Shown here in pieces: positions 1-46,166 of a DNA stretch of 46,166 nt. Position numbers and translations under genes: made by a program. The notes beneath the pieces are model-generated. The model had not been told where the DNA came from. It saw nothing but the letters and a program-made list of their open reading frames with translations, and made no database searches. This DNA is from a phage, in assembly GCA_017760785.1 (NCBI GenBank), contig GCA_017760785.1_4320.1; one strand, written 5' to 3'. The stretch's first letter is position 1. Each line of letters opens with the position of its first letter.

Positions 1-38
1 AAAAAAAAGGATGTACCGATTATGGCACATCCAATTCT

Positions 39-3064: not shown

Positions 3065-3102
3065 CTATTCATCGAAACGAAACGCACAAAGAGAGAAAGA
3101 AA

Positions 3103-30669: not shown

Positions 30670-30712
30670 TAGCACAAAATGGTAAAGCCAAAAGGATTTG
30701 GCTTGCTATAAT
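30670..30712 (+). promoter_or_regulatory. motif-like promoter (TAGCACAAAATGGTAA, TATAAT)
   Basis: immediately after tape-measure stop; drives HNH gene. Confidence 0.45.
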
Positions 30713-30740
30713 CAACTCATTAAAATCATGAGGTGATAAA

Positions 30741-31229
30741 ATGAACTGGAATGATATTTTTGATTATAGAGATGGCGTTCTTTATTGGAAGATAAAGCCA
30801 GGAAAGAACATGCTGCTTGGATCGAGGGCCGGAACAATTAGAAAGAATGGTTATCTTTCTGTTGGTTTTGACAGAAGTGAATTTTACATTCACAGGATAG
30901 TTTGGGAGATGCATAATGGCTCAATACCAGATCTAATGCAGATAGATCATATAGACCAGATAAGGACAAACAATAAGATTGAAAACTTGAGACTTGTAAC
31001 TAGCGCAGAAAATAACAGAAATCAAACAATGCAGTATAATAACACTAGCGGATACACTGGAGTTACATGGAGGAAGGATAGATGCAAATGGTCTGCAAGA
31101 ATCGAGTTTGAAGGCAAGGTTAGATATCTTGGTAACTTTTCAAAATTCGATGAAGCAGTGGCAGCAAGAAAATTAGCAGAGGATATGTTTGGATTTCACG
31201 AAAATCATGGCAAGAGGAAAATAAAATGA
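30741..31229 (+). CDS. HNH homing endonuclease with AP2-like domain
   Basis: N-terminal YWKIK, HID motif, C-terminal GYTGV...W AP2-like; own promoter. Confidence 0.75.
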   Translation: MNWNDIFDYRDGVLYWKIKPGKNMLLGSRAGTIRKNGYLSVGFDRSEFYIHRIVWEMHNGSIPDLMQIDHIDQIRTNNKIENLRLVTSAENNRNQTMQYNNTSGYTGVTWRKDRCKWSARIEFEGKVRYLGNFSKFDEAVAARKLAEDMFGFHENHGKRKIK

Positions 31230-31573
31230 TTGAAAGTTTTAATTGGTGCACACAGGTTCAAAATGGCGGAGGATCATTTACTAACTCTAGTAACGTAAGA
31301 ATTGTTTCATTCGGTAATAGTTATCGGCAAATTGGAGTCGGGGGGTATAACACAAACGTTAGAACATACTCAATGACCTACACAAACAAGGATTGGCGGG
31401 AGGTGATGGAGTTTTGTTTTAACCACATCATTACCCCATTCTTCTGGACTACGCCGCAAGGTGATACATCGATGTTTGTAATCCAGCAGGATAGCATTAG
31501 CGTAACTCCGCTCAGCAATGAAGTTCAGACTGTAAACATGCAATTCGTGGAAGTATTTAGCTCAATGCGTTAA
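31226..31573 (+). CDS. minor tail protein, lambda gpM-like
   Basis: 115 aa; position after tape measure. Confidence 0.65.
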   Translation: MIESFNWCTQVQNGGGSFTNSSNVRIVSFGNSYRQIGVGGYNTNVRTYSMTYTNKDWREVMEFCFNHIITPFFWTTPQGDTSMFVIQQDSISVTPLSNEVQTVNMQFVEVFSSMR

Positions 31574-31577
31574 ACTA

Positions 31578-31600
31578 AGCCCCTGTGAGGGGCTTTTTTA
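31578..31600 (+). terminator. rho-independent terminator after gpM-like gene
   Basis: AGCCCC-TGTGA-GGGGCT then TTTTTTATT. Confidence 0.7.
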
Positions 31601-31612
31601 TTGGAGAAATAT

Positions 31613-32368
31613 ATGTTAAGTCCAAAGTTTGAAAATCAGTTGCAAAGCCTTTTCCCAGGCGAGATTGTGACTCTAATTCAGGTTGACGGAACGTCGTTTG
31701 GTTCTCGCGTTTACAATTTCCACAATGAGAACATTTCATACACACCTGAAGAAATCATGCTAGCACAAATGAATGGCGAGCCACTACCAGAGAAAACCAT
31801 CACCTTCCGTGGTGAAGAGTACGGCCCAAGACCGTTCGGAATCTCTGGCATAAATATGACTTCTGACGGCAAAGCCAACAAAGTGACGCTAACAGTATCA
31901 AACGTAGACCAGCGAATTAGCGCATTGATTCGAACATACAACGGACTTGTTAAAGCTAAGGTTACCATCTGGATTACTACGCGAGATAACATCAATGAAG
32001 ACGGAAGCATTGCTGATGGGGATTATCGCAGATTCGTTTACTTCATTGAGCGGCCGAAGCAGGTTGATTATAAAACAGCGTCATTTGAGCTAAGCTCACC
32101 TATGGATATGGACGGCATTTATATTCCAGCGAGACTTGTTCAGTCTGTTTGCTATTTCGCCTCCAGGGGCTGGTATCGCAGCGGCAATGGCTGCACCTAT
32201 GCTGGAAATCGATACTTCGATAAAGATGATAACCAGGTAGATGACCCTTCATTAGACTTCTGTGCCGGAACGGTCAACAGTTGCAAGATTAGGTTTGGTG
32301 AGAATAATCAGTTAGATTTTGGCGGCTGTGCGGCAGCTAGCCTTCAGGCTAAAGCAAATCAATCATAG
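31613..32368 (+). CDS. minor tail protein, lambda gpL-like
   Basis: C-terminal Cys cluster; ATG 31613 with GGAGA SD. Confidence 0.7.
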   Translation: MLSPKFENQLQSLFPGEIVTLIQVDGTSFGSRVYNFHNENISYTPEEIMLAQMNGEPLPEKTITFRGEEYGPRPFGISGINMTSDGKANKVTLTVSNVDQRISALIRTYNGLVKAKVTIWITTRDNINEDGSIADGDYRRFVYFIERPKQVDYKTASFELSSPMDMDGIYIPARLVQSVCYFASRGWYRSGNGCTYAGNRYFDKDDNQVDDPSLDFCAGTVNSCKIRFGENNQLDFGGCAAASLQAKANQS

Positions 32369-32413
32369 CACTTTTTGTTAAGAGGACGGACCAGATTTGG
32401 GCTATTCTATAAT
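32366..32413 (+). promoter_or_regulatory. motif-like promoter (TAGCACTTTTTGTTAA, TATAAT, spacer +5)
   Basis: drives second HNH gene. Confidence 0.4.
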
Positions 32414-32436
32414 CTCTTAAATTTGGGGGTTAAAAT

Positions 32437-32919
32437 ATGAATTGTCATGATTACTTTAGGTATGAAGATGGTAAAATCTACTGGAAGATAAAACCAAAAA
32501 GAAAGCCTTTCCTTTTTGGTTGCGAAGCTGGTAGCGGTAATCCTGGTGAGTATAAGACCGTTAAGATTGATGGATACAGATACAGGTGTCACAGGGTAAT
32601 ATATGAGATGTTTAATGGCAGTATTAAAGATGGCATGGTTATTGATCACATAAATGGCCTGAAAGATGACAATCGAATTGAAAATCTAAGATGTGTAACT
32701 GTCTCAATTAACGCAAAGAATCAAAAAGTTAATGCTAAAAACAATTCTGGAATTAATGGTGTAAGACTTTACAAGAGGACTGGTAAGTGGATTGCTTACA
32801 GCAAGTCTTTCGGTAAGTGCGTTCATCTTGGATATTTTTATTCTATTGAATCCGCAATTGACGCGAGGGACTTATATAATTCAACAAATGGTTTCACAGA
32901 GAGGCATGGGAAATGTTAA
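32437..32919 (+). CDS. HNH homing endonuclease with AP2-like domain
   Basis: paralogue of 30741-31229; own promoter. Confidence 0.75.
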   Translation: MNCHDYFRYEDGKIYWKIKPKRKPFLFGCEAGSGNPGEYKTVKIDGYRYRCHRVIYEMFNGSIKDGMVIDHINGLKDDNRIENLRCVTVSINAKNQKVNAKNNSGINGVRLYKRTGKWIAYSKSFGKCVHLGYFYSIESAIDARDLYNSTNGFTERHGKC

Positions 32920-33671
32920 CACCAAAAGTTAAACTGGAAATCTTACAGCACGCAAAAGAGGTTTACCCGCATGAGTGTTGTGGGGTTGTCACGCAGAAAG
33001 GTCGCGCGCAGAAATACCACAGAATCAAGAACGCCAGCAAAGACCCAGAGAATGAATTCATCCTTGATTCAAATGAGTATTCTGATATTGCATTTGGATT
33101 ATCCGATAACGAGTCTATTGTTTACGTAGTTCACTCCCACACTGGTGATGGAGCGACAACAAGACCTAGCCCTGCGGATATCTGTAGTTGCAACGAGTGC
33201 GAGATTCCTTACGTTATCGTAAGCATACCAGAAGGAGACATGAGAATCCTTGAACCTTCAACCATGCCGCTGATTGGTCGACCGTGGGGTCTTGGTAGCT
33301 TTGATTGCTGGGAGTTAGTGATGAGTTTTCACAAGAAATACGGTGTCAAACTGAATGACTACCGCGTTAATTACCCTTGGTGGGAGAAACGGTACAATGA
33401 AAATATATATGATGACAATTGGATTAAGGAAGGTTTTCAGCTAGTAAAAACTTCGGATATTCCCATTGGATCAATGATTATGATGCAGGTGCAAAGTGAG
33501 GTGACAAACCACGCCGGAATCTACATTGGCAATAACAGATTCATCCACCATCTCTATGGTAAAATGAGTTCTATTGATATCTACTCCGATTACTGGCGTG
33601 AGCGCACAGTGCGAATCGTTCGCCATAAGGATTTACCAGAGGATGTAATTTATGACCCAGAAACTGATTGA
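32913..33671 (+). CDS. tail assembly protein, lambda gpK-like (MPN plus NlpC/P60)
   Basis: HxH...D metalloprotease-like motif then Cys/His NlpC-like region. Confidence 0.7.
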   Translation: MLTPKVKLEILQHAKEVYPHECCGVVTQKGRAQKYHRIKNASKDPENEFILDSNEYSDIAFGLSDNESIVYVVHSHTGDGATTRPSPADICSCNECEIPYVIVSIPEGDMRILEPSTMPLIGRPWGLGSFDCWELVMSFHKKYGVKLNDYRVNYPWWEKRYNENIYDDNWIKEGFQLVKTSDIPIGSMIMMQVQSEVTNHAGIYIGNNRFIHHLYGKMSSIDIYSDYWRERTVRIVRHKDLPEDVIYDPETD

Positions 33672-34224
33672 TATTAAGTTAGGCCTGTCTCTAGGTAGAA
33701 AGTTTGGCAAGATTTACCAAATGGCAGTAAGTAGCGTGCCCGAGGCAATGCGAGCGCTTTGCTCTCAGGTTCCAGCCTTCAAGGAGTTCATGAACAGTCA
33801 TGTTGGTCAAAACACAAGGTACGCAGTATTTGTCGATGGCAAGAATGTTAACGAACATAGAATTGCTGATTTTAGTGCCGTTCAGGAGATACGTATCCTC
33901 CCGATTCCACAAGGACGCAAGTCTGGCGGTTTGTTTCAGACGATTCTAGGTGCCGCGCTTATCACGGTTGGTATCTTCACTGGCCAGATTTATCTTGTTG
34001 GTGCTGGTGTTTCTCTGGCTGCTGGTGGTATTGCTCAGTTACTTTCACCGCAAGCAACTGGATTAAAGACCCAGAACAACCAAACAAGCAACCGCGCATC
34101 ATATGCATTCGGCTCCGCAGTAAACACGGTTGCCGCTGGATATCCAGTCTGCCTTCCATATGGTTACAGGACGGTTGGCGGCTCGGTATTTTCTGCCGGC
34201 TCGTATAGTGAAGACATTGCTTAA
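33652..34224 (+). CDS. tail assembly protein, lambda gpI-like
   Basis: 190 aa; Gly-rich hydrophobic C-terminal half; position. Confidence 0.6.
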   Translation: MTQKLIDIKLGLSLGRKFGKIYQMAVSSVPEAMRALCSQVPAFKEFMNSHVGQNTRYAVFVDGKNVNEHRIADFSAVQEIRILPIPQGRKSGGLFQTILGAALITVGIFTGQIYLVGAGVSLAAGGIAQLLSPQATGLKTQNNQTSNRASYAFGSAVNTVAAGYPVCLPYGYRTVGGSVFSAGSYSEDIA

Positions 34225-34231
34225 ATATCAT

Positions 34232-34255
34232 ACCCGCCTAGTGCGGGTTTTTTAT
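34232..34255 (+). terminator. rho-independent terminator after gpI-like gene
   Basis: CCCGC-CTAGT-GCGGG then TTTTTTATTT. Confidence 0.7.
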
Positions 34256-34265
34256 TTAGTGTAGA

Positions 34266-37200
34266 ATGGCACAGATGATCAAAACAAACATGGGGCTTTG
34301 TGATATGGCTGAAGAGATTAAGATTTATGGTGCCAAGGGTGGTAGCCAGAAGCAGCGTCAACCAGTGGAGCAGGAAGATAACCTAATTTCACTTAACAAG
34401 GTTAAGGTGTTGCTAGCTGTTGCTGATGGAGAGGTGGATCCAAACTTCTCAATGAAGGATTTATACCTTGCTGACGTTCCAGTGCAAAATCAGAATGGTA
34501 CCTACAACTACGAAGGTGTTCGCGCTGAGTTCCGTGCTGGTACGCAGTATCAGGACTACATCGCTGGCCTTGATGGTGCAAACTCAGAAATACAGGCTTC
34601 CAGAGAAATCACTAACGATACCCCGTATATCATCGCGGTTAATAATACTCAGCTATCAGCAATTCGTGTAAAGCTATATTGGCCTCGACTAGTTAAGCAA
34701 GAAAGCAATGGCGACCTGAACGGAACGACTTGCGAGTACGCAATTGACCTGTCTGTTAATGGCGGGGCATATCAGGAATACACTAGCGGAGTTGCTAACG
34801 GGAAGACAACTACAGGTTACGACCGCAGCATTCGCGTGAACCTTCCGGCAGAGTTCGATAGCGCCCTGGTTCGCATCCGTAAGATTACAGCAGATTCAAC
34901 AAGTAGCACCCTTGTTAACGGTATGCAGATTACAACCTATCAGGAAGTAATCGACGCTAAATTCCGCTACCCGCTTACGGCTCTTGTTTATGTTGAATTT
35001 GGCTCTGACCTTTTCCCTAACGGAATCCCGACAATCTCAATTAAAAAGAGATGGAAGTTGATTCAGGTACCGACAAACTACAATACGGAGACAAGAACTT
35101 ACAGCGGCACATGGAATGGCCTGTTCAAAATGGCGTGGTCAAACAACCCGGCATGGGTTCTTTATGACTTGGTTACAAACCGCCGTTACGGACTTGACCA
35201 GCGGGAACTAGGTGTAGAGATTGATAAATGGGGGCTGTACGAAGCTGCGCAATTCTGTGACCAGATGGTTCCTGATGGTAAGGGTGGAATGGAGCCGCGT
35301 TATCTTTGTGATATGGTAGTGCAAAACAAGGTTGAGGCTTACACGCTAATTCGTGATATCTGCTCAATATTCCGTGGCTTGACTTTCTATGATGGCGAAA
35401 AGATTGGTATCGTTGTTGATAAGCCACGCAATCCATCATACATCTTCACGAATGATAACATTGTAAACGGATTGTTCAGCCGCACCTTTGCCAGTGATAA
35501 GAGCCTTTACACCACAGCAAACGTTCAGTTTGATGATGTTGAGAACAACTATCAGCAGGATGTTGAGCCAGTTTTTGAACTCGAGGCTACTCGTCGATTT
35601 GGATTCAATCCTGTCGACCTCACGGCAATTGGATGTACGCGAAGAAGCGAAGCAAATAGACGCGGCAGATGGCTCCTGAAAACAAACCTGAGAAGCGAAA
35701 CTATTAGCTTCACTACCGGGTTAGAGGGCATGATTCCGATGATTGGCGAGGTTATTGCGGTCAATGATGCCGCATGGTCTAGCAACTATCAGCTAAACCT
35801 TTCCGGTCGTATTGAATCAGTTCAGGGATTGCAGGTTTTTACCCCATTTAAAGTTGACGCAGTGCCTGGTGACAGGATTCTTCTGAACAAGCCTGACGGA
35901 ATCCCAGAGGCGAGAACTATTGCAAGCGTTTCGGAAGATGGTAGAACTATCAACCTGAATACTGCATTTAGTTTTGTAGCTCAGCCTGATACTGTGTTCG
36001 CAATTGATAAGGATAATCTCGCGCTTCAACAGTATGTTGTGACAGGGATTCAAAAGGCAGATTCTGATGGTTCTGATTCATTTCAGTATACGATTACAGC
36101 GGTAGAGTATGACCCGAACAAGTATGACGAGATTGACTATGGCGTTAACATTGTTGATCGCCCGACTTCAATCGTTGAGCCTGACAGATTATCGCCACCA
36201 GAAAACCTAACCGTATCAAGCTATAGCAAGGTTGTTCAGGGCTTGTCAGTTGAGACGATGGTAATTGGTTGGGACAAGGCACCATACGCTAAAACCTACA
36301 ATGTTCAGTGGAGGAAAGAGAATGGTAACTGGATTAACGTACCCAGAACGGCAAGTACAGAGGTTGATATCGAAGGTATTTACGCAGGAATATATGACGT
36401 TAGGGTTCGCAGCGTATCAGATACTGAAAACGTGTCTGCCTGGTCTGGTGTTGTAACCAAAAGCCTAACCGGAAAAATTGGTAAGCCACCAAAGCTAAAG
36501 GTTATAACGGCAAGTGATGACGAAGTTTTCGGTATTAGAGTTAAGTGGGGCTTTGCTGATGGATCTGGTGATACTTCTTACACTGAGCTTCAGCAAGTAA
36601 CTGACAATGGTGACGGTACATACAACCCAGATAATGCTAGCCTATTAACTTTGGTCCCATACCCTCAGTATGAATACTGGCACGCGCCGATTCAACCAGG
36701 AAATGTTATCTGGTATCGCGCAAGGATTATAGATAGGATTGGTAATACATCTGATTGGACGGATTTCGTCAGAGGAATGAGTACTGATGATGCTCAGAAG
36801 ATCGCCGAATATATCAAGGTTGATATCGAGCAGTCTGAGGGCTTTAAATACCTAGAGCAGAATGCGATTAAGAAGAACCAGGAAATTCAGAATCAGGCAG
36901 AGTCAATTCTTGAGAACGCATTGGCAAATGATGGTGATGTTCGCAGGATGACAAAGGAGAATGGGAAGCGTAAGGCTGAATATGTTCAGGCAGTTAATCT
37001 TATAGCCGATGAAACTCAGGCGCGCGTAGAGGCTCTTACTCAGCTTAAAGCGCAGATTGATAATGAGATTGTTGGTCAGATTACAACAATTGAAACAGCG
37101 CTAGCTACAGAGACCGAGGCCAGAGCAACCGCAGATACGGCTTTGAGCGCAAGGCTTGGTCAGAACGAGGCAGCGCTAAACCAGAAGCTAGACGCATTCT

Positions 37201-37691
37201 CCAATGCAACATCCACTGGCGTGCAGTACGGAATTAGTCTTGGACTGAAATACAACGGCCGGACTTACTCTTCAGGTATGAGCATGGAGCTTGTTGGCAC
37301 TGGTGGCAATGTTCGCAGTCAGTTCATCTTTGACGCAAATAGATTCGCTATCAGTAACGGTATTGGTTCTGGTTCCGGTCAGTGGCAACTCCCCTTCGTT
37401 GTCGAGAACGGAGACGTAATCATCCAGAGCGCCGTGATCAAGGATGGATCAATCAGTAACGCGAAGATTGGTAACTTTATTCAGTCAAACAACTACGTTG
37501 CAGGAAGTACAGGCTGGAGGATTGATAAATCAGGAAGTGCAGAGCTAAGCAACGCCACTGTAAGGGGTAATCTTTACGCTAACAATGGTAACTTCGCTTT
37601 CAATGGAACCAATAACACGGTTCAGATTAACGGGAATGGAATCACGGTAAACCTACCAAATGGTGGTCGTGTTGTTGTAGGTACGTTCTAA
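34266..37691 (+). CDS. tail tip/host specificity protein, lambda gpJ-like
   Basis: 1141 aa; position after K and I. Confidence 0.85.
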   Translation: MAQMIKTNMGLCDMAEEIKIYGAKGGSQKQRQPVEQEDNLISLNKVKVLLAVADGEVDPNFSMKDLYLADVPVQNQNGTYNYEGVRAEFRAGTQYQDYIAGLDGANSEIQASREITNDTPYIIAVNNTQLSAIRVKLYWPRLVKQESNGDLNGTTCEYAIDLSVNGGAYQEYTSGVANGKTTTGYDRSIRVNLPAEFDSALVRIRKITADSTSSTLVNGMQITTYQEVIDAKFRYPLTALVYVEFGSDLFPNGIPTISIKKRWKLIQVPTNYNTETRTYSGTWNGLFKMAWSNNPAWVLYDLVTNRRYGLDQRELGVEIDKWGLYEAAQFCDQMVPDGKGGMEPRYLCDMVVQNKVEAYTLIRDICSIFRGLTFYDGEKIGIVVDKPRNPSYIFTNDNIVNGLFSRTFASDKSLYTTANVQFDDVENNYQQDVEPVFELEATRRFGFNPVDLTAIGCTRRSEANRRGRWLLKTNLRSETISFTTGLEGMIPMIGEVIAVNDAAWSSNYQLNLSGRIESVQGLQVFTPFKVDAVPGDRILLNKPDGIPEARTIASVSEDGRTINLNTAFSFVAQPDTVFAIDKDNLALQQYVVTGIQKADSDGSDSFQYTITAVEYDPNKYDEIDYGVNIVDRPTSIVEPDRLSPPENLTVSSYSKVVQGLSVETMVIGWDKAPYAKTYNVQWRKENGNWINVPRTASTEVDIEGIYAGIYDVRVRSVSDTENVSAWSGVVTKSLTGKIGKPPKLKVITASDDEVFGIRVKWGFADGSGDTSYTELQQVTDNGDGTYNPDNASLLTLVPYPQYEYWHAPIQPGNVIWYRARIIDRIGNTSDWTDFVRGMSTDDAQKIAEYIKVDIEQSEGFKYLEQNAIKKNQEIQNQAESILENALANDGDVRRMTKENGKRKAEYVQAVNLIADETQARVEALTQLKAQIDNEIVGQITTIETALATETEARATADTALSARLGQNEAALNQKLDAFSNATSTGVQYGISLGLKYNGRTYSSGMSMELVGTGGNVRSQFIFDANRFAISNGIGSGSGQWQLPFVVENGDVIIQSAVIKDGSISNAKIGNFIQSNNYVAGSTGWRIDKSGSAELSNATVRGNLYANNGNFAFNGTNNTVQINGNGITVNLPNGGRVVVGTF

Positions 37692-37722
37692 AATAAAAGC
37701 CCCGAAAGGGGCTTTATCTTTA
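37690..37722. terminator. bidirectional terminator between gpJ-like gene and minus-strand cassette
   Basis: GCCCC-GAAA-GGGGC flanked by A-run and T-run. Confidence 0.7.
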
Positions 37723-38679: not shown

Positions 38680-38921
38680 TATTTCCACTCCTTAGAACCA
38701 TGGTCTTTAACTGAGCCACCGTAACCGCCACCAGTAGCCTTAATTCCATCGTAGCGCACGTCAACTTCTCCAGCCGGTACAACCACACCACTTTTCCATT
38801 TAGCCACGCACACGCCATTTGCTTGCGTTGCACACCAGCCATCCGTACGTGGACCAGAAGAGCAACCTACCATCATGATTGCTGCTGCGGCGATGATTGC
38901 TGATTTGATGAAGTTAGTCAT
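38679..38921 (-). CDS. small lipoprotein, Cor-like superinfection-exclusion candidate
   Basis: 80 aa from ATG 38921 (GAGGTA SD); signal peptide with MVGC lipobox-like site. Confidence 0.5.
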
Positions 38922-38960
38922 TTTATATACCTCATTAAGTTTTTTCGTTTCGATGGAGTA

Positions 38961-39003
38961 ATAGTACCGCATCCTTGCGGATTGTCTTTAGCAAACCGTG
39001 CTA
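38961..39003 (-). promoter_or_regulatory. motif-type promoter (TAGCACGGTTTGCTAA, 21 bp, TACTAT)
   Basis: minus strand; CCATCGAAACGAAAAA leader before Cor-like gene. Confidence 0.5.
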
Positions 39004-39677
39004 TTCGCAATAAATACAGCTCTTGCAAATCCACGAGGTGTAAGGCTGCGAATTACCTTTGTTTTCTTGCTCTTGCCTCCCAGCTTCTTGTATTGTTCAG
39101 AGAATCCATCGTCAACGACCACATTGATCGCCTCAGGCCAATTAAAGCCATTACCTGACCAGATGCATGTCTTCTTAGGATATGCGTCGCGAGGCTTTAT
39201 TAGGTCGCTAAAAAACGGGTGTAAATCATCTTCAGGCAAGTATCCACCAAACTCGTAAGGGTGGAGTGTATTGTCAGGTTTTCGCCAAAGAGATGAAAGC
39301 ACGCTAATTGGGTTCTCAATCATATAAGGTACGCCGTACTTCTCAGCCAGGTTAAAAGCAACCTTGCAAGTCTCTGCCGCCTCAATTTGAAAATTAGGAT
39401 TGGCCAGGCGCTTGCGATCAAAGTGTCTTGACCCACTCACGGCTAAATCAGTGCATGGGGGGAATGCCATGATAAAATCAGGCTTCACATCAAAATAAAA
39501 ATTGGCATCTATCCATGCGTTAACGTAGGTGATGTTCTCATGCTCAAATTTTGCATTTAAGTCACCATAGCTCCCGTGGTCAGACTCATCAAAGTTGAAG
39601 CAGTAGCAAGTATGTCCGGCTTCAGCCCAATCCTTTACAGCCAGACCAGAACCATCAAATAAAGACCAGATAACCAT
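38988..39677 (-). CDS. compact DNA C5-cytosine methyltransferase-like protein
   Basis: FDGSG, FPPCT, ENP motifs at C5-MTase-like spacing; ATG 39677 (alternative TTG 39710 lies inside the -10). Confidence 0.5.
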   Translation of the reverse strand: MVIWSLFDGSGLAVKDWAEAGHTCYCFNFDESDHGSYGDLNAKFEHENITYVNAWIDANFYFDVKPDFIMAFPPCTDLAVSGSRHFDRKRLANPNFQIEAAETCKVAFNLAEKYGVPYMIENPISVLSSLWRKPDNTLHPYEFGGYLPEDDLHPFFSDLIKPRDAYPKKTCIWSGNGFNWPEAINVVVDDGFSEQYKKLGGKSKKTKVIRSLTPRGFARAVFIANSTVC

Positions 39678-39711
39678 TTTTAAATCCTCTATCGTTGCTT
39701 GTGTGACCAAC

Positions 39712-39751
39712 TATACCAGGTTTTGCGGATTAGTTTTAGCTATTCGTGCCA
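39712..39751 (-). promoter_or_regulatory. variant motif promoter (TGGCACGAATAGCTAA, 20 bp, TGgTATAGT)
   Basis: minus strand; spacer shares AATCCGCAA with 38961-39003 promoter. Confidence 0.5.
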
Positions 39752-39789
39752 TTGCATACACGTAACCGTTGTAACTAGATGTATACAAT

Positions 39790-40110
39790 CTCATCCGCGG
39801 AAAATGATATACGCGATATTACGCCAATTTACGCATTGGTTACATTAAAATATCTATATATATCAACACTTTACTCTTATTATTATTATTATATATATTA
39901 CTGTGTATATCATGTAACTACTTCTATAGAGTGTTCCGGTTATAATTTTCTAATATGTACATTTATACAGTATCTAGCGACAAGCATACCAATGCACCAA
40001 CCCCCGCGAGAAATGGTATACACTATATACACACTGGTTACATTGAGCTATGCCTCGGATGGGATGCCAAAAAGCGTAACTAACGCCAATATCTACACAT
40101 AATTACAATG
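39790..40110. repeat. AT-rich divergent control element, copy 2
   Basis: shares ATATCTATATATA, (TAT)5 at 39878-39892, TATTACTGTGTATATCATGTAAC and GCCAAAAAGCGTAAC...CGCCAATAT blocks with copy 1. Confidence 0.7.
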
Positions 40111-40135
40111 ATTCACACGTAAGTCTGAATCAACG

Positions 40136-40179
40136 ATTGGATAAACCAATTGGACTGTCTATGGTGCTGAATATATAGT
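40136..40179 (+). promoter_or_regulatory. alternative palindrome ATTGGATAAACCAAT upstream of TATAGT
   Basis: perfect 5-N5-5 inverted repeat at same distance from -10 as TAGCA palindromes. Confidence 0.45.
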
Positions 40180-40218
40180 TAACCCATCGAAAGCAAACAA
40201 CCACAGAGAGATACAGAA

Positions 40219-40413
40219 ATGACCTACTACATTATCAAAGAGAAAAACAACGCACTGTTCTGCGACTGCTACTTTGGTGGCCCAGCCGGATACACCACAG
40301 ATAAGAACGAGGCTGACAGATTCGAGACAAAAGAAAGAGCCAGAGATTTTCTGACTGGTTACCTCACTGAGGAAGATTTAAAGTCGGTTAAAGTAGTTAA
40401 GGTTAAGGGGTGA
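40219..40413 (+). CDS. hypothetical protein
   Basis: 64-aa ORF after ATTGG palindrome promoter. Confidence 0.45.
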   Translation: MTYYIIKEKNNALFCDCYFGGPAGYTTDKNEADRFETKERARDFLTGYLTEEDLKSVKVVKVKG

Positions 40414-40416
40414 AAC

Positions 40417-40578
40417 ATGAAGATAAAGGTGTTTATAACTGAAGAAGAGATGCAGCAGCTAGGCGCTAATACGGACGTTGATGTTGCTAAAATCATAACG
40501 TATGATCTTAAAAACAGTGATTGCTATGATGAGTTTCCATATCCTGACTTTCGAGTTATTGTTAACATAGAGGATTGA
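40417..40578 (+). CDS. hypothetical 53-aa protein
   Basis: hand-translated ORF between track ORFs. Confidence 0.35.
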   Translation: MKIKVFITEEEMQQLGANTDVDVAKIITYDLKNSDCYDEFPYPDFRVIVNIED

Positions 40579-40581
40579 TAT

Positions 40582-41547
40582 ATGTCTTTTAAAGTCTACA
40601 CGCGAGAAGAGTTAAGCAACGAGGATTACCACTCAGAGCAAGACCACATCTCCGGTAGCTCGCTTGTTGAGATTATCCAGGGCTCACCAGCTAAGTGGAA
40701 ATTTAAACAGCGCAATAGCGATAGCAAGGCTCTTAAGTTTGGCACGCTGAGTCACATGTATATCCTCGAAGGTGACATGTTTGATAAAGAGTATCTTAGA
40801 GCAACAGACCTTGATGCGATTGAGGGCTTAATTACAAGCCAGGCTGGATTATCGGCAGCGCTTAAAAAAGTTGGTGTAGCCGGCACATCCGGGAAGGGCT
40901 ATAGCGAGCTAGTAGAGATGATGTATCGCTCTGGTGAGGATTGGGATGTTAAATGGCTAATTGAGCAGCAGGAAAGCGCTCAGGCTCTTGTAGAGGGTAA
41001 GGAGCTGGTTAGCGCAGCAGACTATGACAAGGTTGTAGCTATGCGTGAAGTTCTTTGCAATATCCCGGCATATAATGCAATCGTGAACAGTGAGACGGCT
41101 CAGAAAGAGTTATCGATCTTCGGTGAGATTCTAGGTGTTGGGGTTAAGATCCGAATCGACCATGTTGATGTTATTGATGGCGTTGTCAGGATCACAGATT
41201 ACAAAACGACCGCAGATGCAAGCCCTGAAGGATTTGGTAAGTCAGCATTCAATCACGGATATCTTGCAAAAATGGCACTTCAGCGCGATCTGTTTGTGAA
41301 GGCATTCAACGAGAAACGAAAGGTTGTTGTAGGATTACTGGCGCAGGAGAAGGTAGAGCCATATTTACCAATGCTGTACACCTTGACGGACGAACAGCTA
41401 CGAATTGGCCGCTTGCAGTATCTTGAGGCGCTTGCCACATACAAGAAGTGTAAGGAGCTAGATATCTGGCCTGGATATTCGAACGGCATTGCAGAGCAAG
41501 AGCTATTAGTTCCTGAGTGGGCGATTAAACAATATAGAGAGATATAA
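40582..41547 (+). CDS. PD-(D/E)xK recombination exonuclease
   Basis: RIDHVDVIDG...ITDYKT motif; adjacent to erf and ssb. Confidence 0.6.
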   Translation: MSFKVYTREELSNEDYHSEQDHISGSSLVEIIQGSPAKWKFKQRNSDSKALKFGTLSHMYILEGDMFDKEYLRATDLDAIEGLITSQAGLSAALKKVGVAGTSGKGYSELVEMMYRSGEDWDVKWLIEQQESAQALVEGKELVSAADYDKVVAMREVLCNIPAYNAIVNSETAQKELSIFGEILGVGVKIRIDHVDVIDGVVRITDYKTTADASPEGFGKSAFNHGYLAKMALQRDLFVKAFNEKRKVVVGLLAQEKVEPYLPMLYTLTDEQLRIGRLQYLEALATYKKCKELDIWPGYSNGIAEQELLVPEWAIKQYREI

Positions 41548-41548
41548 A

Positions 41549-42013
41549 ATGAACAAAGATTGCTGGCAGACTCCTTTAGAGTTATTCAAACAACTAGATG
41601 ATAAATACAACTTCGAGGTTGACGTATGCGCCAGCCAAGAAAACGCGCTTTGTGAATGTTTTTGGGCTGTAGATGATGACTGCCTGCAACAGGATTGGGG
41701 AGAAGGCAAAGGTTTTGTCTGGTGTAATCCACCATATAGCAATCCATTGCCATTTGTCGAAAAGTGCCAACAATACGGCTATGCAGTCATGCTGTTGAAT
41801 CAGGACACATCAACAAAATGGGCCAAGATAGTATTTGAAAAAGCGTCAAATGTTATACTTTTATCAGACAGGGTTAGGTTTATAAATCCAGTAACACTGG
41901 AGGTTGGTAAGTCAAATCCTAAATGCCAGATGATTGTGGTTTTCGACAAGAGTAGTAATTCTGGTGTTGATATAAGATGGTGCCCAATAAAAGAAATTCA
42001 TAAGCACATCTAA
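41549..42013 (+). CDS. dam: DNA N6-adenine methyltransferase (Dam-like)
   Basis: NPPY motif and N-terminal WQTP; 154 aa. Confidence 0.8.
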   Translation: MNKDCWQTPLELFKQLDDKYNFEVDVCASQENALCECFWAVDDDCLQQDWGEGKGFVWCNPPYSNPLPFVEKCQQYGYAVMLLNQDTSTKWAKIVFEKASNVILLSDRVRFINPVTLEVGKSNPKCQMIVVFDKSSNSGVDIRWCPIKEIHKHI

Positions 42014-42014
42014 A

Positions 42015-42057
42015 TAGCACGAATCGCTAAAGACAAAATTAAAAGGTGGGGTATGAT
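42015..42057 (+). promoter_or_regulatory. motif-type promoter (TAGCACGAATCGCTAA, TATGAT)
   Basis: after dam stop; precedes erf region. Confidence 0.5.
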
Positions 42058-42088
42058 AACCATATCAACAACAAACGAGGTTAAAGTT

Positions 42089-42163
42089 ATGAATCTTCAC
42101 CCACTTACATATATCCACATTATCGCCTGGATCGTTTTATTCATTTACTTATTCAATCGATAA
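42089..42163 (+). CDS. 24-aa hydrophobic peptide (speculative)
   Basis: hand-translated MNLHPLTYIHIIAWIVLFIYLFNR; GAGGTT SD. Confidence 0.25.
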   Translation: MNLHPLTYIHIIAWIVLFIYLFNR

Positions 42164-42174
42164 GGATTTTAAAA

Positions 42175-42825
42175 ATGCAAATTTCAGAATCGTGCAAGTC
42201 AATTTTAAGCGCACTACACACTGCTAAATCGCTATTTGCGAAGGCTGAAAAGTCTAAGCAGAACTCTCACTTAAAGAATAATTACGCAACCTTAGAAGAC
42301 GTATTGGCCGCTGTTGAGCCTGGCTTGGACGAGTGTGGCTTGGTTATGTTCCAGAGCGTGCTTGATGATGAACAAACGAATCGTTTGAAGGTTGAGACAA
42401 AGCTATTTCACGCAGAATCTGGAGAGTGGGTTAGCTTCTTAATGATTGTCCCAATTAGTAAGAATGACGCGCAAGGTTACGGCTCAGCTTTAACATACGC
42501 TCGACGCTACGGAATCACGGCGGCATTGGGACTTAGCCAGGCAGATGATGATGGCAATCTCGCCGCTAAGGGTGTTAAGGATTTCAAGCGAGAGTTGGAG
42601 AAATGCAATACTCTTGATGAACTTCGTAACGTTTGGAAGGATGCCAAGCAATCACTCGACGCGGCAGGATGGAAGGTTTTTGAACCTCACATTATCGAGC
42701 GAAAGGCAGAGATTGAGGCAAATGCAGCAATTGGCTTCAACCCAGCAACACCAAAGAGAGTCACAGAAAAAAGTAGTCATAAAGAAAAGATTGAAGTAGA
42801 ATCACAACAAATTGACACATTCTAA
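42175..42825 (+). CDS. erf: Erf-family single-strand annealing protein
   Basis: GSALTYARRYG motif; neighbours exonuclease and SSB. Confidence 0.75.
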   Translation: MQISESCKSILSALHTAKSLFAKAEKSKQNSHLKNNYATLEDVLAAVEPGLDECGLVMFQSVLDDEQTNRLKVETKLFHAESGEWVSFLMIVPISKNDAQGYGSALTYARRYGITAALGLSQADDDGNLAAKGVKDFKRELEKCNTLDELRNVWKDAKQSLDAAGWKVFEPHIIERKAEIEANAAIGFNPATPKRVTEKSSHKEKIEVESQQIDTF

Positions 42826-42866
42826 ATTTAACGGGGCTTCGGCCCCAGCAATAGAGAGATAAAAAC

Positions 42867-43292
42867 ATGCACGTAATTACTGGTCAGATTCGCCGCGCTC
42901 CATTCACTAAAGAAGGTCAGAATGCTAATGGTGCCTGGAAAATGTTTGCGGTTGATTTGAGTGAGCGATACAAAGATAAAGATGGTCAGACTCAGTATAG
43001 TAACTATCGCGCCGTCTTCTTCGCTAAAGAGTCAATGCTAGATTGGTACAATGAAGCATTTCAAGAGGGTAAAGTTGTTAGCGTTATCGCGGAGACTCTT
43101 TCTGTTGATGTTAGGGATAAGGATGGCAAGACTTACGTTACTATCAATATGAACAATCCTCGACTTGAATTTAGTCATCGAGGTTACTCGGCACCACAAC
43201 AGCAGCAGCAAGGACAGCAACAGCAACCTCAACCTCAACAGCAGAGACATCCACAACCACAGCAGCAGTTTGATTCGGATATTCCATTCTGA
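42867..43292 (+). CDS. ssb: single-stranded DNA-binding protein
   Basis: Q/P-rich linker and C-terminal DSDIPF tail. Confidence 0.8.
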   Translation: MHVITGQIRRAPFTKEGQNANGAWKMFAVDLSERYKDKDGQTQYSNYRAVFFAKESMLDWYNEAFQEGKVVSVIAETLSVDVRDKDGKTYVTINMNNPRLEFSHRGYSAPQQQQQGQQQQPQPQQQRHPQPQQQFDSDIPF

Positions 43293-43304
43293 TTGGTGAA
43301 CAAA

Positions 43305-43332
43305 TAAGGAGCCTTGTGGCTCCTTTTTTTAT
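43305..43332. terminator. bidirectional terminator between ssb and tail fibre gene
   Basis: AGGAGCC-TTGT-GGCTCCT flanked by A-rich and T-run. Confidence 0.7.
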
Positions 43333-44663
43333 TTGTTATCAATCAAACTATTAATCAATAATTTAAGTTCACCAACCTCAACCTCAAGATTTTCAATTCT
43401 TTTCTTTGCTTCTTCGCTTTCACTTATTGTCACCTTTAGTGCACAAATGGCATCTAAAAGAAGCGCGTTCTGATCAAGAACCAGCCTCTCTCTGAACTCA
43501 GAACTACCAATTTTAACTCCATCATCATCTAAGATATCATTGCCTAATGGCTCAAATGTGTGCTTCACATACTGAGGGTCTATTTTTTCTATCTGTTGAG
43601 CTATAACGCCACGCCTCTCTCTTTTCTTTTCATCATCCTTAAACTTGAATGTAACAAGTTCCATTTTTTTAATGTTATAGACAGATTGCAATCCATCATA
43701 ATTAGATATATCAGTTTTGTAGTTAATGTCAGAAGTTCCTTGCAGCGCCAAGGTTCCTCCTGATGTTGGGAAGTTTATGATATATTGCCCATTATTGTTA
43801 TCAAGATTTCTCGTTGCAAGGTAAAACCCACCAGTTGGTGATATCTCAAAAACCCTTCTAGAACCAACGACATTTGACCCCGATGATGTTAGTGTAATGT
43901 TTGTGTATTCATTACTTATACAGAAAACATTATTACATGAAACTCTACCAGTAGTTGAGACCCCTCTGAATTCAACGTTATCAGTTGTAGACAACTGTAA
44001 GTTAGACCTTGCGGCTGCTTTATCCGGTATGTCCTGGAGATTCTTATCTTTAGCCAGAAAGAGGTCTGGATTAATGCTGTCAGCGTAACCTTTTGCGTTC
44101 GTTTCTGATGTTTTAGCTGCGTTCTGAGATGCAAGTGCCGCCGATGCTGAGTTAGCAGCGGCAGTCTGTGAAGCAGATGCGGCATTCTTACTTGCAAGAG
44201 CTGCCGCCGCAGAACCAGCTGCCGCCGTAGCAGAATCAGCTGCCGCATTTTTGCTTGCGTCTGCCGCCGCAGCGTCAGCCGTGACTTTTTCAGTCGTTAA
44301 TTTAAATTGCTCCCAATCAAATGTTTTGAAAAAATCAATTGCTTCCGCAACCTCAGTTTCTTTTCCCTGGTAGTATCGCAGTGTTTCAGCCACATCCTGG
44401 GCCAGCCCGTCAACCGTGATTGAATCGTGAAGAAGAATGACGTACTGAGATCCGGCGGGAACTACAGCGCCGTTTGTTGTCATTACCCGCAACTCCGTAT
44501 CACTAACTATTTCAGAGATCGTACCAATGGCCCCAACGACCGTAGGAAACATGATTGTTGCGCCAGCGCGGATCAGAGACAGCCTGTTTTGCCACTTAGT
44601 TCCTACGCCAATAGCAACGCCGTTTGAAGACAGTGATGCCGTCCCAGTTCTGTAAATTGCCAT
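43329..44663 (-). CDS. tail fibre protein, possible C-terminal chaperone domain
   Basis: ATG 44663 (track start 44711 lies inside palindrome); Ala-rich repeat region; C-terminal coiled coil. Confidence 0.65.
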   Translation of the reverse strand: MAIYRTGTASLSSNGVAIGVGTKWQNRLSLIRAGATIMFPTVVGAIGTISEIVSDTELRVMTTNGAVVPAGSQYVILLHDSITVDGLAQDVAETLRYYQGKETEVAEAIDFFKTFDWEQFKLTTEKVTADAAAADASKNAAADSATAAAGSAAAALASKNAASASQTAAANSASAALASQNAAKTSETNAKGYADSINPDLFLAKDKNLQDIPDKAAARSNLQLSTTDNVEFRGVSTTGRVSCNNVFCISNEYTNITLTSSGSNVVGSRRVFEISPTGGFYLATRNLDNNNGQYIINFPTSGGTLALQGTSDINYKTDISNYDGLQSVYNIKKMELVTFKFKDDEKKRERRGVIAQQIEKIDPQYVKHTFEPLGNDILDDDGVKIGSSEFRERLVLDQNALLLDAICALKVTISESEEAKKRIENLEVEVGELKLLINSLIDNK

Positions 44664-44688
44664 AATGTAAACCCCATATTTTGATTTA

Positions 44689-44704
44689 TAGCACGAATTG
44701 CTAA
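44689..44704 (-). promoter_or_regulatory. palindrome copy TAGCACGAATTGCTAA, 25 nt from tail-fibre ATG
   Basis: no room for standard -10 plus leader; may indicate leaderless start or other role. Confidence 0.35.
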
Positions 44705-44730
44705 AATTCATTCTACCATCTTCCAGGCAA

Positions 44731-44752
44731 TAAAAAACCTCCCTAGGGAGGT
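44731..44752 (-). terminator. minus-strand terminator after primase gene
   Basis: CCTCCC/GGGAGG palindrome with A-run on plus strand. Confidence 0.55.
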
Positions 44753-45675
44753 TAGTTTAGCAAGTCTTTGGCTTTGTACACTTTCTTGCGTATTCCTGTT
44801 TTAAATGACTTCCCGTCATTAGGTATCACCACATCAACATTGCGATCATCAGCGGCAATAAGTATATCAGTATCACAATAACGGCAAGCAACCCTAAACT
44901 TCCTAGACTTGTCTCTGTGCATAACCATTTCCATATTGTAACAGGAGAAAGCCACAAACACCTCGCGACCGCCAGTAGCCAGATGAATACGTACGCCATC
45001 AATAAAATTATCAACAACATAAGTGTAACCATCAACCTGCCTAGAGCCAATGACAGCAACAGAATCACGAGTGTAATCACCAGCAAGGAACTTAACATTT
45101 GAATCTCCATCAATAAACATTAAGTTGCAGAAATCATCACCAAGCCCATCCTCGTAAACCATCGAGCACGGTACGGCATGAATCATTGAGCCATCCTTAG
45201 CTATGCCAACATCGAATCCATCATCAAGATAAATACCCTCGTATGTTGTGAGTGGGCTTGATTCAACTCTCTCGGTACGCTGCATGACCTCAAGCACTTT
45301 TTCATGATCTACCTGGGCGCCCATTTTGTAACGCTGAGTTCTTGATGCCTGCTTGTTTGCCTTAACTATAACCTCAATTGGTGTTAAGTTCAGCCAGTCA
45401 CCAAGCAAATTTACTGAATCGGCGAAGGACAATCCAGTGCACTTCATGACCCATCCTATACCGGAGTCACTTCCGCATTTCGAACAAACTGCCGCGCCAT
45501 TTCCTTTTTCACTGCCTATTTCGTCGGTAAACCTGAATCTGTCAGTGCCAAAGCAGTATGGGCATGGTCCGTGCTTCTTACTTAGGTGTCTATCATTCCA
45601 ACCAAGTTCCTTTGCATAAAATGATTTCCACAATCCGGCCATCTTAGGTATAACTTCATTCTTATCGTAATTCAT
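44752..45675 (-). CDS. DNA primase-like protein with zinc-binding motif
   Basis: CPYC...CSKC zinc-ribbon-like motif followed by acidic core; 307 aa. Confidence 0.55.
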   Translation of the reverse strand: MNYDKNEVIPKMAGLWKSFYAKELGWNDRHLSKKHGPCPYCFGTDRFRFTDEIGSEKGNGAAVCSKCGSDSGIGWVMKCTGLSFADSVNLLGDWLNLTPIEVIVKANKQASRTQRYKMGAQVDHEKVLEVMQRTERVESSPLTTYEGIYLDDGFDVGIAKDGSMIHAVPCSMVYEDGLGDDFCNLMFIDGDSNVKFLAGDYTRDSVAVIGSRQVDGYTYVVDNFIDGVRIHLATGGREVFVAFSCYNMEMVMHRDKSRKFRVACRYCDTDILIAADDRNVDVVIPNDGKSFKTGIRKKVYKAKDLLN

Positions 45676-46151
45676 TTGCTTAACCCGTGATTTTCGTGAA
45701 AGTTGTATTTTCTCTCTGCTTCAATTCTTACTTTATACGCCTGCTCTGGAGTATCGAAGTTCCCAAGGTGTAGCTGCTTACCGTCAACCTTGATGTGAGC
45801 CTTAAATTTTCCGTGATTTAGCTTTGTCACTCCACAATAACCAGTTGTTGATAAAACGCTAAGCTTGCAATTTCTTGAGTTACCTTGATTTGTTGTTACT
45901 CTTAGGTTTTCTATTCTGTTATCTAATTTGTTATGGTTTATATGATCAATGTAGTCGCCATTTTGAAGTTCTCCATTAAACATCTCCCACACAACTCTAT
46001 GTACATAAGTCCTAAAGCCATTAACAGACACTTTGTAATAGCCAGATGTAGATAGTGAGTTGCACTCATCGCCAACCTTAACACGTCTTGCAGTGCTAAT
46101 CTTCCAATGCAATTTGCCATCTACATAGTAAAAATAATCATGCCAGTTCAT
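45672..46151 (-). CDS. HNH homing endonuclease with AP2-like domain
   Basis: third paralogue (YWKI, HINH, GYCGV motifs); overlaps primase start. Confidence 0.7.
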   Translation of the reverse strand: MNWHDYFYYVDGKLHWKISTARRVKVGDECNSLSTSGYYKVSVNGFRTYVHRVVWEMFNGELQNGDYIDHINHNKLDNRIENLRVTTNQGNSRNCKLSVLSTTGYCGVTKLNHGKFKAHIKVDGKQLHLGNFDTPEQAYKVRIEAERKYNFHENHGLSK

Positions 46152-46166
46152 TTTCTTCTCTCCAAT

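Follow-up and report, generated by a model that had tools for sequence, protein, structure and literature searches.

The HNH(N) endonucleases I-HmuI (PDB 1U3E) and I-BasI are intron-encoded homing enzymes of the nicking type from the Bacillus phages SPO1 and Bastille, respectively. The gene for I-HmuI is located inside a group I intron, and the C-terminus of the protein reportedly is a helix-turn-helix domain, as described by Shen et al. in 2004. I-HmuI is a nickase (PMC3017599). A free-standing HNH(N)-AP2 class (Magnani et al. 2004) has been described from the Xanthomonas phages Xp10, OP1, and Xop411, from T1, Rtp, and T5, and from ICP1 under the name IPA-HNH; its members are about 160 aa in length, are intergenic, and occur in several copies per genome (PMC2248197, PMC10448857), and multi-copy HNN-AP2 genes are documented in T1, Rtp, and T5 (PMC2248197). 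Experiment has demonstrated the activity of T4 MobE, the product of a free-standing HNH gene between nrdA and nrdB, which nicks the downstream nrdB within its 5' region; mobE itself is promoterless, depends on upstream transcription, and co-converts flanking DNA (PMC2790892). Proteins of the Mob class have a zinc-finger C-terminus (PMC10448857). Islands of homing endonuclease genes near essential genes have also been described, mainly from ICP1 and further lineages that carry T5orf172 and IPA-HNH genes (Barth, Dunham and Seed 2023; PMC10448857).

In this report, we describe three genes of the HNH(N)-AP2 class in a window of 46,166 nt, the whole stretch of DNA that was analyzed, which is the genome of an Rtp-like Drexlerviridae phage (an Rtp/T1-like coliphage). 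An earlier note on this DNA had proposed three paralogous, AT-rich genes for proteins of about 160 aa, inserted between the tape measure gene and gene M, between genes L and K, and upstream of the primase gene. All three open reading frames were found at these places: HNH1 (162 aa; 30741–31229, plus strand), HNH2 (160 aa; 32437–32919, plus strand), and HNH3 (159 aa; 45672–46151, minus strand). The GC contents were determined to be 0.366, 0.356, and 0.373, respectively, relative to 0.439 for the genome, and these values fall within the lowest 1–5% of 480-nt windows. The proteins are 41–44% identical to one another in pairs, and no fourth HNH-AP2 paralogue was found in the window by tblastn. A recent duplication within the genome was ruled out, since each protein is 94–99% identical to same-site orthologues elsewhere; the three are family-level paralogues from separate site-linked lineages. 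Our reading, to which we assign a probability of roughly 0.8, is that the phage HNH(N)-AP2 class of free-standing homing endonucleases is represented here by three genes that have spread by homing and repair during co-infection. Elements of this kind are well established in these phages; two of the sites carry new alleles, and the genes leave existing knowledge of phage homing endonucleases unchanged. What the genome offers is a worked example, in which each of three sites in one small genome has all the comparative marks of homing, namely an empty allele, site fidelity, and a coalescence 10–50-fold younger than that of the flanks.

The three proteins share the domain order of the free-standing class: the N-terminal region resembles I-HmuI, the nuclease core is of the HNH(N) type, and the C-terminal domain has the AP2 fold. 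The HNH motif named in the earlier note was borne out by the Pfam family HNH_3 (PF13392), a subgroup of the HNH/His-Me finger nucleases, for which the scores of HNH1, HNH2, and HNH3 were 74.3, 69.9, and 65.3 bits (E-values of 5.8e-21, 1.4e-19, and 3.8e-18), all above the curated cut-off of 24.8 bits. PHROG_99 ("HNH endonuclease") also matches all three, with E-values from 1e-51 to 1e-65 (1.8e-65 for HNH1), and no NCBIfam family matches any of them. The predicted catalytic residues D69, H70, N82, and N91 align with D74, H75, N87, and N96 of I-HmuI; they are invariant in the three paralogues and nearly invariant among 70 homologues. In the AF2 structure model of HNH1 (pLDDT 86.9), strands 66–70 and 83–87 and helix 88–93 form a beta-beta-alpha-metal fold, and the best structural matches of the model are I-HmuI followed by AP2 domains. 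A profile built from the 70 family sequences matches I-HmuI 1U3E over positions 1–98 with an E-value of 1.5e-8; both the DNA-contact region and the nuclease core are homologous to those of I-HmuI and I-BasI. The N-terminal YWKIK box that the earlier note had ascribed to all three proteins is found in HNH1 and HNH2, whereas HNH3 reads HWKIS; W16, K17, and I18 are invariant throughout.

The AP2-like character of the C-terminus could be upheld in part. The Pfam matches to AP2 (PF00847) fell below the gathering threshold of 33.3 bits, at 14.3 and 17.9 bits (E = 0.004 for HNH2), and HNH3 gave no match. However, the same 70-sequence profile matches the AP2 domain of WRI1 over positions 99–150 with an E-value of 1.3e-4, a single-sequence search matched the ApiAP2 domain 3IGM with an E-value of 0.008, and a precomputed match to PF00847 is present in many homologues of the family. 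The model contains the elements of the fold (strands 108–111, 116–123, and 126–133 and helix 136–150), and Foldseek returned the AP2/ERF structures 7ET5, 7WQ5, 3IGM, and 1GCC, the last with a TM-score of 0.67 and an rmsd of 1.2 Å over 50 columns. At the level of profiles and of the modeled structure, the C-terminal domain is detectably homologous to the AP2/ERF fold. This C-terminus and the free-standing position of the genes set HNH1–3 apart from the intron-borne I-HmuI, and the AP2 fold sets them apart from the Mob class.

At the first site, HNH1 lies between the tape measure gene (27691–30669, plus strand; Pfam TMP_2 and Tape_meas_lam_C) and gene M. Its leader (30670–30740, plus strand) starts immediately after the stop codon of the tape measure gene and reads TAGCAC-AAA-ATGGTA-N22-TATAAT; the –10 box is directly preceded by TGC, and the 5' UTR of 28 nt carries the Shine-Dalgarno sequence GAGG. 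Empty-site relatives do not have this leader, which shares 97% identity with that of gp48 of ACG-M12. The stop codon of HNH1 overlaps the start codon of M (ATGA). The best match to HNH1 in the GenBank phage collection is at most 57% identical, and an orthologue of 94% identity was found at the same site in four metagenome contigs. For the same genome pair, dS was determined to be 0.050 for HNH1 versus 0.68 for the tape measure gene. The first ~140 nt of M (31226–31365, plus strand) are 96–98% identical to the contigs that carry HNH1, after which the identity falls to 82–89%; the corresponding dS values are 0.105 for this tract and 1.22 for the rest of M. The tract is only 66–74% identical to empty-site relatives, and it is a candidate co-conversion or immunity tract. 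The last ~70 nt of the tape measure gene also go with the haplotype that carries the endonuclease gene.

The second site is between the gene for tail protein L (31601–32368, plus strand; Phage_tail_L, E = 2e-44) and that for tail protein K (32913–33671, plus strand; Prok-JAB and NLPC_P60). The leader of HNH2 (32366–32436, plus strand; TAGCAC-TTT-TTGTTA...TATAAT) begins with the TAG stop codon of L, and the end of HNH2 overlaps the start of K (ATGTTAA). The leader is missing from the empty site of PCEc3 and is 84% identical to that of rtp40, the occupant of the same L–K site in Rtp, whereas the two proteins are only 46% identical. Orthologues of HNH2 with identities of 96, 79, and 64% are all located at the L–K site, and the best match in the GenBank phage collection is at most 53% identical. 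The dS value was 0.022 for HNH2 relative to 0.67–0.80 for K and I, and no clear downstream tract was seen in the identity profile of this site.

At the third site, HNH3 is flanked upstream by the gene for an HTH transcriptional regulator, a homologue of rtp52 (39–512, minus strand), and downstream by the DNA primase gene (44752–45675, minus strand), whose start codon overlaps the stop codon of HNH3 (ATGA). The Shine-Dalgarno sequence and leader of HNH3 (46152–46166, minus strand) were placed by a wrap-around alignment; since the window is circularly permuted, the leader continues at positions 1–38. Positions 1–38 (minus strand) hold a predicted intrinsic terminator downstream of the regulator gene and immediately upstream of HNH3, with the sequence GGATGTGCC-ATAATC-GGTACATCC followed by T8 (dG of –22.5 kcal/mol; z of –6.4). 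In Rtp, which has the empty site, this terminator is found ahead of the primase gene, and the annotation of CEB_EC3a names the same element as a terminator. No promoter motif was found between the terminator and HNH3, in which respect HNH3 is like MobE, and with a strong terminator directly upstream the level of expression of HNH3 is uncertain.

In 10 GenBank records (7 phages), this site holds an orthologue of HNH3 with an identity of 98–99%. The six HNH3-carrying phages that were examined in detail represent three named genera and unclassified Braunvirinae, whereas CY1, which belongs to the same genus as the carrier IME542, is without the gene. The dS values for HNH3 are 0–0.011. The island of high identity extends ~315 nt into the primase gene (codons 1–105; 45361–45675, minus strand) and covers the Zn_Ribbon_Prim domain (residues 33–73), so the primase of the window is a chimera. 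Codons 1–105 are 97–100% identical to those of the six HNH3-carrying phages and 47–55% identical to those of the empty-site phages Rtp and IME253, with dS values of 0.03–0.05 compared with 0.55–1.47 for the flanking sequence; beyond codon 105 the affinity is the opposite and the primase is Rtp-like. An assembly artifact as the source of the mosaic primase was ruled out, since the same chimera is found independently in the GenBank record of phiA2-1 and the HNH3 island is common to six isolates. One homing gene appears to have carried a whole functional domain, the Zn-ribbon, into a foreign primase backbone.

The earlier note had proposed a comparison of the insertion sites with relatives, and empty alleles were found at all three, contrary to the outcome named there as a refutation, in which relatives would have the same genes at every site and no empty alleles. 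PCEc3 has empty alleles at both tail sites and Rtp at site 1; at site 3, Rtp, IME253, and CY1 are without an insertion, and T1 is empty at all three. Among the best 40 records, arithmetic on the spans fits both tail sites being empty in 23, one being filled in 10, and both being filled in 7. The empty-site junctions are ready substrates for the definition of new HNH-AP2 specificities. For the same genome pairs, dS to the closest orthologue is 0.00–0.05 for HNH1–3 versus 0.55–1.5 for the flanking genes, and each HNH gene is by this measure an island of recent ancestry. The near-identical islands run on into the essential gene that follows and take in its 5' end (M and primase), which fits the footprint expected of homing with co-conversion and recalls the co-conversion of flanking DNA by MobE. 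The edges of the islands were considered as locators of the cut site and rejected; they coincide with the resumption of homology between allele types and so do not pinpoint it. For HNH1 and HNH2, the closest orthologues lie at the corresponding site in every case, whereas no such fidelity to a site was found in the Xanthomonas study. As in the described islands of homing endonuclease genes, high-identity blocks in diverged genomes are centered on a nuclease gene and adjoin essential genes at loci that accept different endonuclease genes; here the loci are those of tail and primase genes in Braunvirinae. The HNH island regions are to be masked in phylogenies of the Drexlerviridae.

Each gene occupies the spacer between two essential genes, and the overlap of its stop codon with the start of the next gene would preserve downstream expression. 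We propose that, during co-infection with a relative that is without the gene, the predicted enzyme would nick or cut both strands of the DNA of the relative near the empty site, with the start of the following gene as the most likely target, and recombinational repair would copy the endonuclease gene together with an adjoining stretch from the carrier genome. For these putative enzymes, MobE is the closest functional precedent. The 5' ends of the downstream genes linked to HNH1 and HNH3 differ strongly from the empty-site alleles (66–74% and 47–55% identity, respectively), which is an indirect sign that the enzymes may act on the empty allele while the carrier allele is resistant. Nuclease activity at such targets may confer a competitive advantage, including the exclusion of related phages in mixed infections that the earlier note had suggested, and in phage cocktails genes of this kind could bias the inheritance of markers between related therapeutic phages.

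The islands could also come from ordinary recombination at hot spots. The genes would then be passive "moron" cassettes, HNH genes that have lost the ability to home or never had it, with ordinary homologous recombination at intergenic hot spots shuffling them between phages and with drift or hitch-hiking maintaining them. Both tail sites do carry cargo unrelated to nucleases in some relatives (gp45 of ACG-M12 and a Rha-like gene of IME253), and a junction element shared at the start of the cassettes could supply the homology, with the leader and the first 20 codons conserved between occupants that are otherwise 50% identical. The dN/dS on recent branches is 0.5–1, and because this ratio comes from only 2–10 substitutions, relaxed constraint there is possible. 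Over the long range, however, protein identity has been maintained (dN of 0.13 where dS is saturated), and none of the three genes is truncated or has lost a catalytic residue. General recombination is not expected to single out HNH genes, the contrast in dS is replicated at three sites, and the closest orthologues are always from the same site. We regard this explanation as unlikely.

The remaining alternatives assign the proteins a function for the phage itself. Reportedly, the original T1 genome paper suggested host DNA degradation or another housekeeping role for the endonucleases of T1, and T1-like phages do degrade host DNA and typically have several HNH genes per genome (six matching places in DTL). 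For HNH1–3 such a role is highly improbable; the genes are dispensable because close relatives are without each of them, the proteins combine an AP2 domain, which reads sequence, with a DNA-contact region like that of I-HmuI, and site-linked lineages with a signature of recent transfer are unexpected for a housekeeping enzyme. A role in packaging, in which the proteins would assist the terminase as does HK97 gp74, has a negligible probability. None of the three genes adjoins the terminase genes (18327–19901 region), being located instead in the tail and replication modules; since they match HNH_3, which is of the I-HmuI type, the proteins do not have the CxxC zinc sites of gp74-like proteins, and the genes are polymorphic and absent from close relatives. 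The headful packaging of T1-type phages also counts against this role, which some phage HNH proteins do have according to passages in PMC10448857 and PMC3592412. AP2 domains derived from homing endonuclease genes have been co-opted as regulators (PMC10448857), and HNH1–3 could likewise be domesticated DNA-binding proteins that repress through AP2, with a nuclease activity that is secondary or lost; the conserved catalytic residues, the variation among close relatives, and the signature of mobility make this barely credible.

For the plus-strand copies, the earlier note had claimed individual promoters. A junction element of 71 nt, conserved throughout the family, stands at the head of HNH1 and HNH2, so the claim is plausible and was borne out in part. 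A generic sigma-70 scan around sites 1 and 2 gave no enrichment (8 matches versus 7.1 expected in shuffles); it missed the TATAAT boxes owing to the 22-nt distance from the –35-like box. The repeated element TAGCAC-N3-TTGnTA-N22-TATAAT occurs in 21 copies versus 0.96 expected, and the distance of 71 nt from the start of the motif to the start codon matches the geometry at many other genes. In its full form, the element consists of TAGCAC-N3-TTGnTA, a 22-nt spacer that often contains a small hairpin, a TATAAT-like box, a conserved 5' UTR, and the ATG. It heads HNH1, HNH2, ST15 of T1, rtp20, rtp40, and gp45 of ACG-M12, a non-nuclease cassette, as well as about a dozen other genes per T1-like genome.

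No description of the junction motif was found in the literature searched. By analogy with the PeSL (promoter-early stem-loop) cassettes of T4-type phages, the ~71-nt element may, as a speculative and rather doubtful proposal, be a portable regulatory cassette that goes beyond the standard promoter of these phages, combining autonomous expression with a short homology for plugging or swapping reading frames at gene junctions, such that the bodies of homing endonuclease genes would be exchanged behind a fixed leader. A scan of viral contigs for TAGCACNNNTTGCTAAA gave, among the matches listed, mostly single matches that were indistinguishable from chance; of all those listed, only the contigs of ~45–53 kb with multiple matches and Rtp looked meaningful.

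The three ORFs that the earlier note had described are present at exactly the positions it assigned to them, with HNH1 at 30741-31229 and HNH2 at 32437-32919 on the plus strand and HNH3 at 45672-46151 on the minus strand, encoding proteins of 162, 160, and 159 amino acids, respectively. The pairwise identities of these proteins were found to be 41-44%, with 48 invariant columns in the three-way alignment, and they are paralogues as had been proposed; a tblastn search across the window returned no fourth copy. The GC contents of HNH1, HNH2, and HNH3 are 0.366, 0.356, and 0.373, respectively, relative to 0.439 for the window, which confirms that all three are AT-rich and places them in the lowest 1-5% among windows of 480 nt. 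Apart from the HNH genes, AT-rich stretches are found at 39600-40200 and 41800-42200 (GC 0.34-0.35), the first of which contains no convincing ORF.

The window is classified with the Rtp-like Drexlerviridae, subfamily Braunvirinae, and the flanking genes at all three sites are those named previously. At site 1, HNH1 is located between the tape measure gene and M (Phage_min_tail), and at site 2, HNH2 is located between L (Phage_tail_L) and K (Prok-JAB and NLPC_P60). At site 3, HNH3 lies directly upstream of the gene for a primase with a Zn-ribbon domain and, read across the window ends, is preceded by an HTH regulator (39-512, minus strand). At each of the three sites, the HNH stop codon overlaps the start codon of the next gene: ATGA at 31226 (plus strand) for HNH1/M, ATGTTAA at 32913 (plus strand) for HNH2/K, and ATGA at 45675 (minus strand) for HNH3/primase. 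The window is a circular permutation of the 46,196-nt Logan contig ERR054697_128, and its first position falls in the run of Ts of the terminator that precedes HNH3; the sequence upstream of HNH3 is therefore readable only by joining the two ends of the window.

The predicted HNH motif was verified in all three proteins, which match Pfam HNH_3 far above threshold and PHROG_99 (HNH endonuclease). A family profile built from an alignment of 70 sequences matched I-HmuI (1U3E) over positions 1-98 (E 1.5e-8), a stretch that takes in the N-terminal YWK region, and the AP2 domain of WRI1 over positions 99-150 (E 1.3e-4). The AlphaFold model of HNH1 (pLDDT 86.9) consists of two N-terminal hairpins, a beta-beta-alpha core, and a three-stranded sheet with a helix; a Foldseek search with this model ranked I-HmuI first, followed by AP2/ERF domains. 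The proposed AP2-like C-terminus is therefore recovered by profile and structure, but not by the Pfam AP2 model, for which HNH1 and HNH2 score below threshold and HNH3 has no match. Residues D69, H70, N82, and N91, the counterparts of D74, H75, N87, and N96 of I-HmuI, are retained in all three paralogues and are near-invariant across the family. Together with the profile and structure matches, these residues define the architecture: the N-terminus is I-HmuI-like, the core is of the HNH(N) type, and an AP2 domain follows. Proteins of this class are already known from phages, T1 and Rtp among them (PMC2248197; PMC10448857).

Comparison of the insertion sites with endonuclease-free relatives revealed empty alleles at all three. 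PCEc3 lacks an insert at both tail sites, Rtp lacks the insert at site 1, and site 3 is empty in Rtp, IME253, and CY1; all three sites are empty in T1, whose HNH genes are located elsewhere. Arithmetic on the match spans of the 40 best-matching records indicated that both tail sites are empty in 23, one is filled in 10, and both are filled in 7. Other cargo was also found at site 2. In ACG-M12 (L003, 2739-3092) the occupant is the non-nuclease gene gp45, a 'virion structural protein', and in IME253 it is an inverted Rha-like regulator gene. An additional HNH gene lies between I and J in IME253 (cargo at 2581-3078 and from 4544 onward in L004). Junctions between tail genes are general hot spots for insertion.

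The inserted genes lie within islands of high identity, a sign of recent mobility. Site 3 is occupied by 98-99% identical orthologues of HNH3 in 10 GenBank records, representing seven phages, of which six, from three named genera and unclassified Braunvirinae, were compared in detail. From about 45362 to the wrap-around terminator, the window is 97-100% identical to these six phages, whereas identity drops to 56-74% over the rest of the primase gene in five of them and is 80-90% in the regulator. The empty-site phages Rtp and IME253 have the opposite pattern, matching the window at 81-97% identity in the primase body but at only 47-55% in the first ~300 nt. These opposite patterns indicate that the primase of the window is a chimera, codons 1-105 of which, including the Zn-ribbon, arrived with HNH3. 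The same chimera is found in phiA2-1, which rules out an assembly artefact. A second sharp mosaic boundary is located in the regulator-helicase intergenic region (534-633), where identity is 97-99% with Rtp, IME253, DTL, CEB_EC3a, RobRod40, and AugustePiccard and only 46-54% with phiA2-1, IME542, and CY1.

Four metagenome contigs carry orthologues of HNH1 (94% identical) at site 1, and the HNH1 island (30665-31365) comprises the cassette and ~140 nt of M. Relatives of HNH2 with identities of 96, 79, and 64% are all at the L/K site, and the HNH2 island stops at the start of K. The dS values were determined to be 0.050 for HNH1 (0.68 in the flanking tape measure gene), 0.105 for the first 141 nt of M (1.22 in the rest), 0.022 for HNH2 (0.67-0.80 in K and I), 0-0.011 for HNH3 (0.79-1.14 in the regulator), and 0.03-0.05 for primase codons 1-105 (0.55-1.47 in the rest).

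A recent duplication as the origin of HNH1-3 was considered and rejected. The site-1 occupants of different phages are 50-56% identical among themselves, and the occupants of site 2 fall into at least two lineages, since rtp40 shares only 45-48% identity with that of HNH2. HNH1 and gp48 of ACG-M12 are 97% identical in the leader and 88% in codons 1-20, but only 55% at the DNA level beyond codon 20; gene bodies appear to have been swapped behind a common leader. HNH1 and HNH2 are at most 57 and 53% identical, respectively, to phage sequences in GenBank and are new alleles.

Intronless homing is the best-supported reading of the three genes, and the homing endonuclease interpretation of the earlier note is supported. 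The enzyme would nick or cut an allele lacking the homing endonuclease gene close to the junction, and repair would copy the cassette with the adjoining stretch. For HNH1 and HNH3 the break would probably fall near the start of the gene that follows, as it does in nrdB for T4 MobE. The island edges do not locate the cut, because they lie at the points where the allele types become homologous again. The endonuclease-linked 5' ends of M and the primase gene differ strongly from the empty-site alleles, a divergence compatible with target immunity. For HNH1-3, cleavage activity, its strand specificity, its targets, and any exclusion of other phages are inferences. The phenomenon is already well known, and the GenBank orthologues are annotated as putative homing endonucleases.

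The earlier note had also assigned each plus-strand copy its own promoter. A generic sigma-70 scan was uninformative. The leaders of HNH1 and HNH2 were found to be copies of a repeated junction element, TAGCAC-N3-TTGnTA-N22-TATAAT, which makes individual promoters plausible, although the 22-nt spacing is non-canonical. The TATAAT boxes are located at 30707-30712 for HNH1 and 32408-32413 for HNH2. The window contains 21 copies with at most one mismatch, relative to 0.96 expected, and none of 100 shuffles had as many. For 12 of the 21 copies, the start of the next ORF lies 70-76 nt beyond that of the motif; HNH1 and HNH2 each begin at 71 nt. The same geometry is found in Rtp (20 copies) and T1 (21 copies), and the element also heads T1 ST15, rtp20, and rtp40. 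It is missing from the empty sites compared, which argues that it travels with the cassette. HNH3 has no copy and is immediately preceded by a strong intrinsic terminator (dG -22.5 kcal/mol, z -6.4), in which it resembles the promoterless T4 mobE (PMC2790892).

Copies of the element start at 3022, 3897, 5961, 7048, 14146, 14878, 15755, 16531, 26658, 30670, 32366, and 42015 on the plus strand and at 39003, 12492, 11093, and 10502 on the minus strand. With its fixed geometry, the element can be written TAGCAC-N3-TTGnTA-N22-TA(T/A)A(A/G)T, and is often followed by TAnCnCATCGAAACGA and, 70-76 nt after the beginning of the motif, by an ATG. The preceding gene frequently terminates within the element itself, either on its initial TAG or on the TAA in TTGCTAA. 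The 22-nt spacer often contains a small hairpin, and in Rtp and T1 these hairpins coincide with annotated 'terminators'. No description of the element was found in the searchable literature; as a side observation, this family-wide element is the sole feature here not found described.

Translational control has been reported for other phage homing endonuclease genes. The 5' UTR of HNH1 (30711-30737) has a possible hairpin, CUCAU...AUGAG, that overlaps the Shine-Dalgarno sequence GAGG and could exert such control; the whole HNH1 leader folds at z -3.9, and the fold of the HNH2 leader is not significant (z -1.25). An AT-rich palindrome of 13 pairs within HNH2 (32492-32521, codons ~19-28) was flagged by a scan as terminator-like on the minus strand, and an internal regulatory terminator is present in T4 mobE (PMC2790892). 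Only three copies of the junction motif fall within the structural module, two of them ahead of HNH1 and HNH2. The third copy (26658) precedes a small ORF (26734-26982, 82 aa) that is flanked by the major tail gene on one side and the tail chaperone genes on the other; this ORF has a signal-peptide or lipoprotein-like N-terminus and looks like another moron-type insert.
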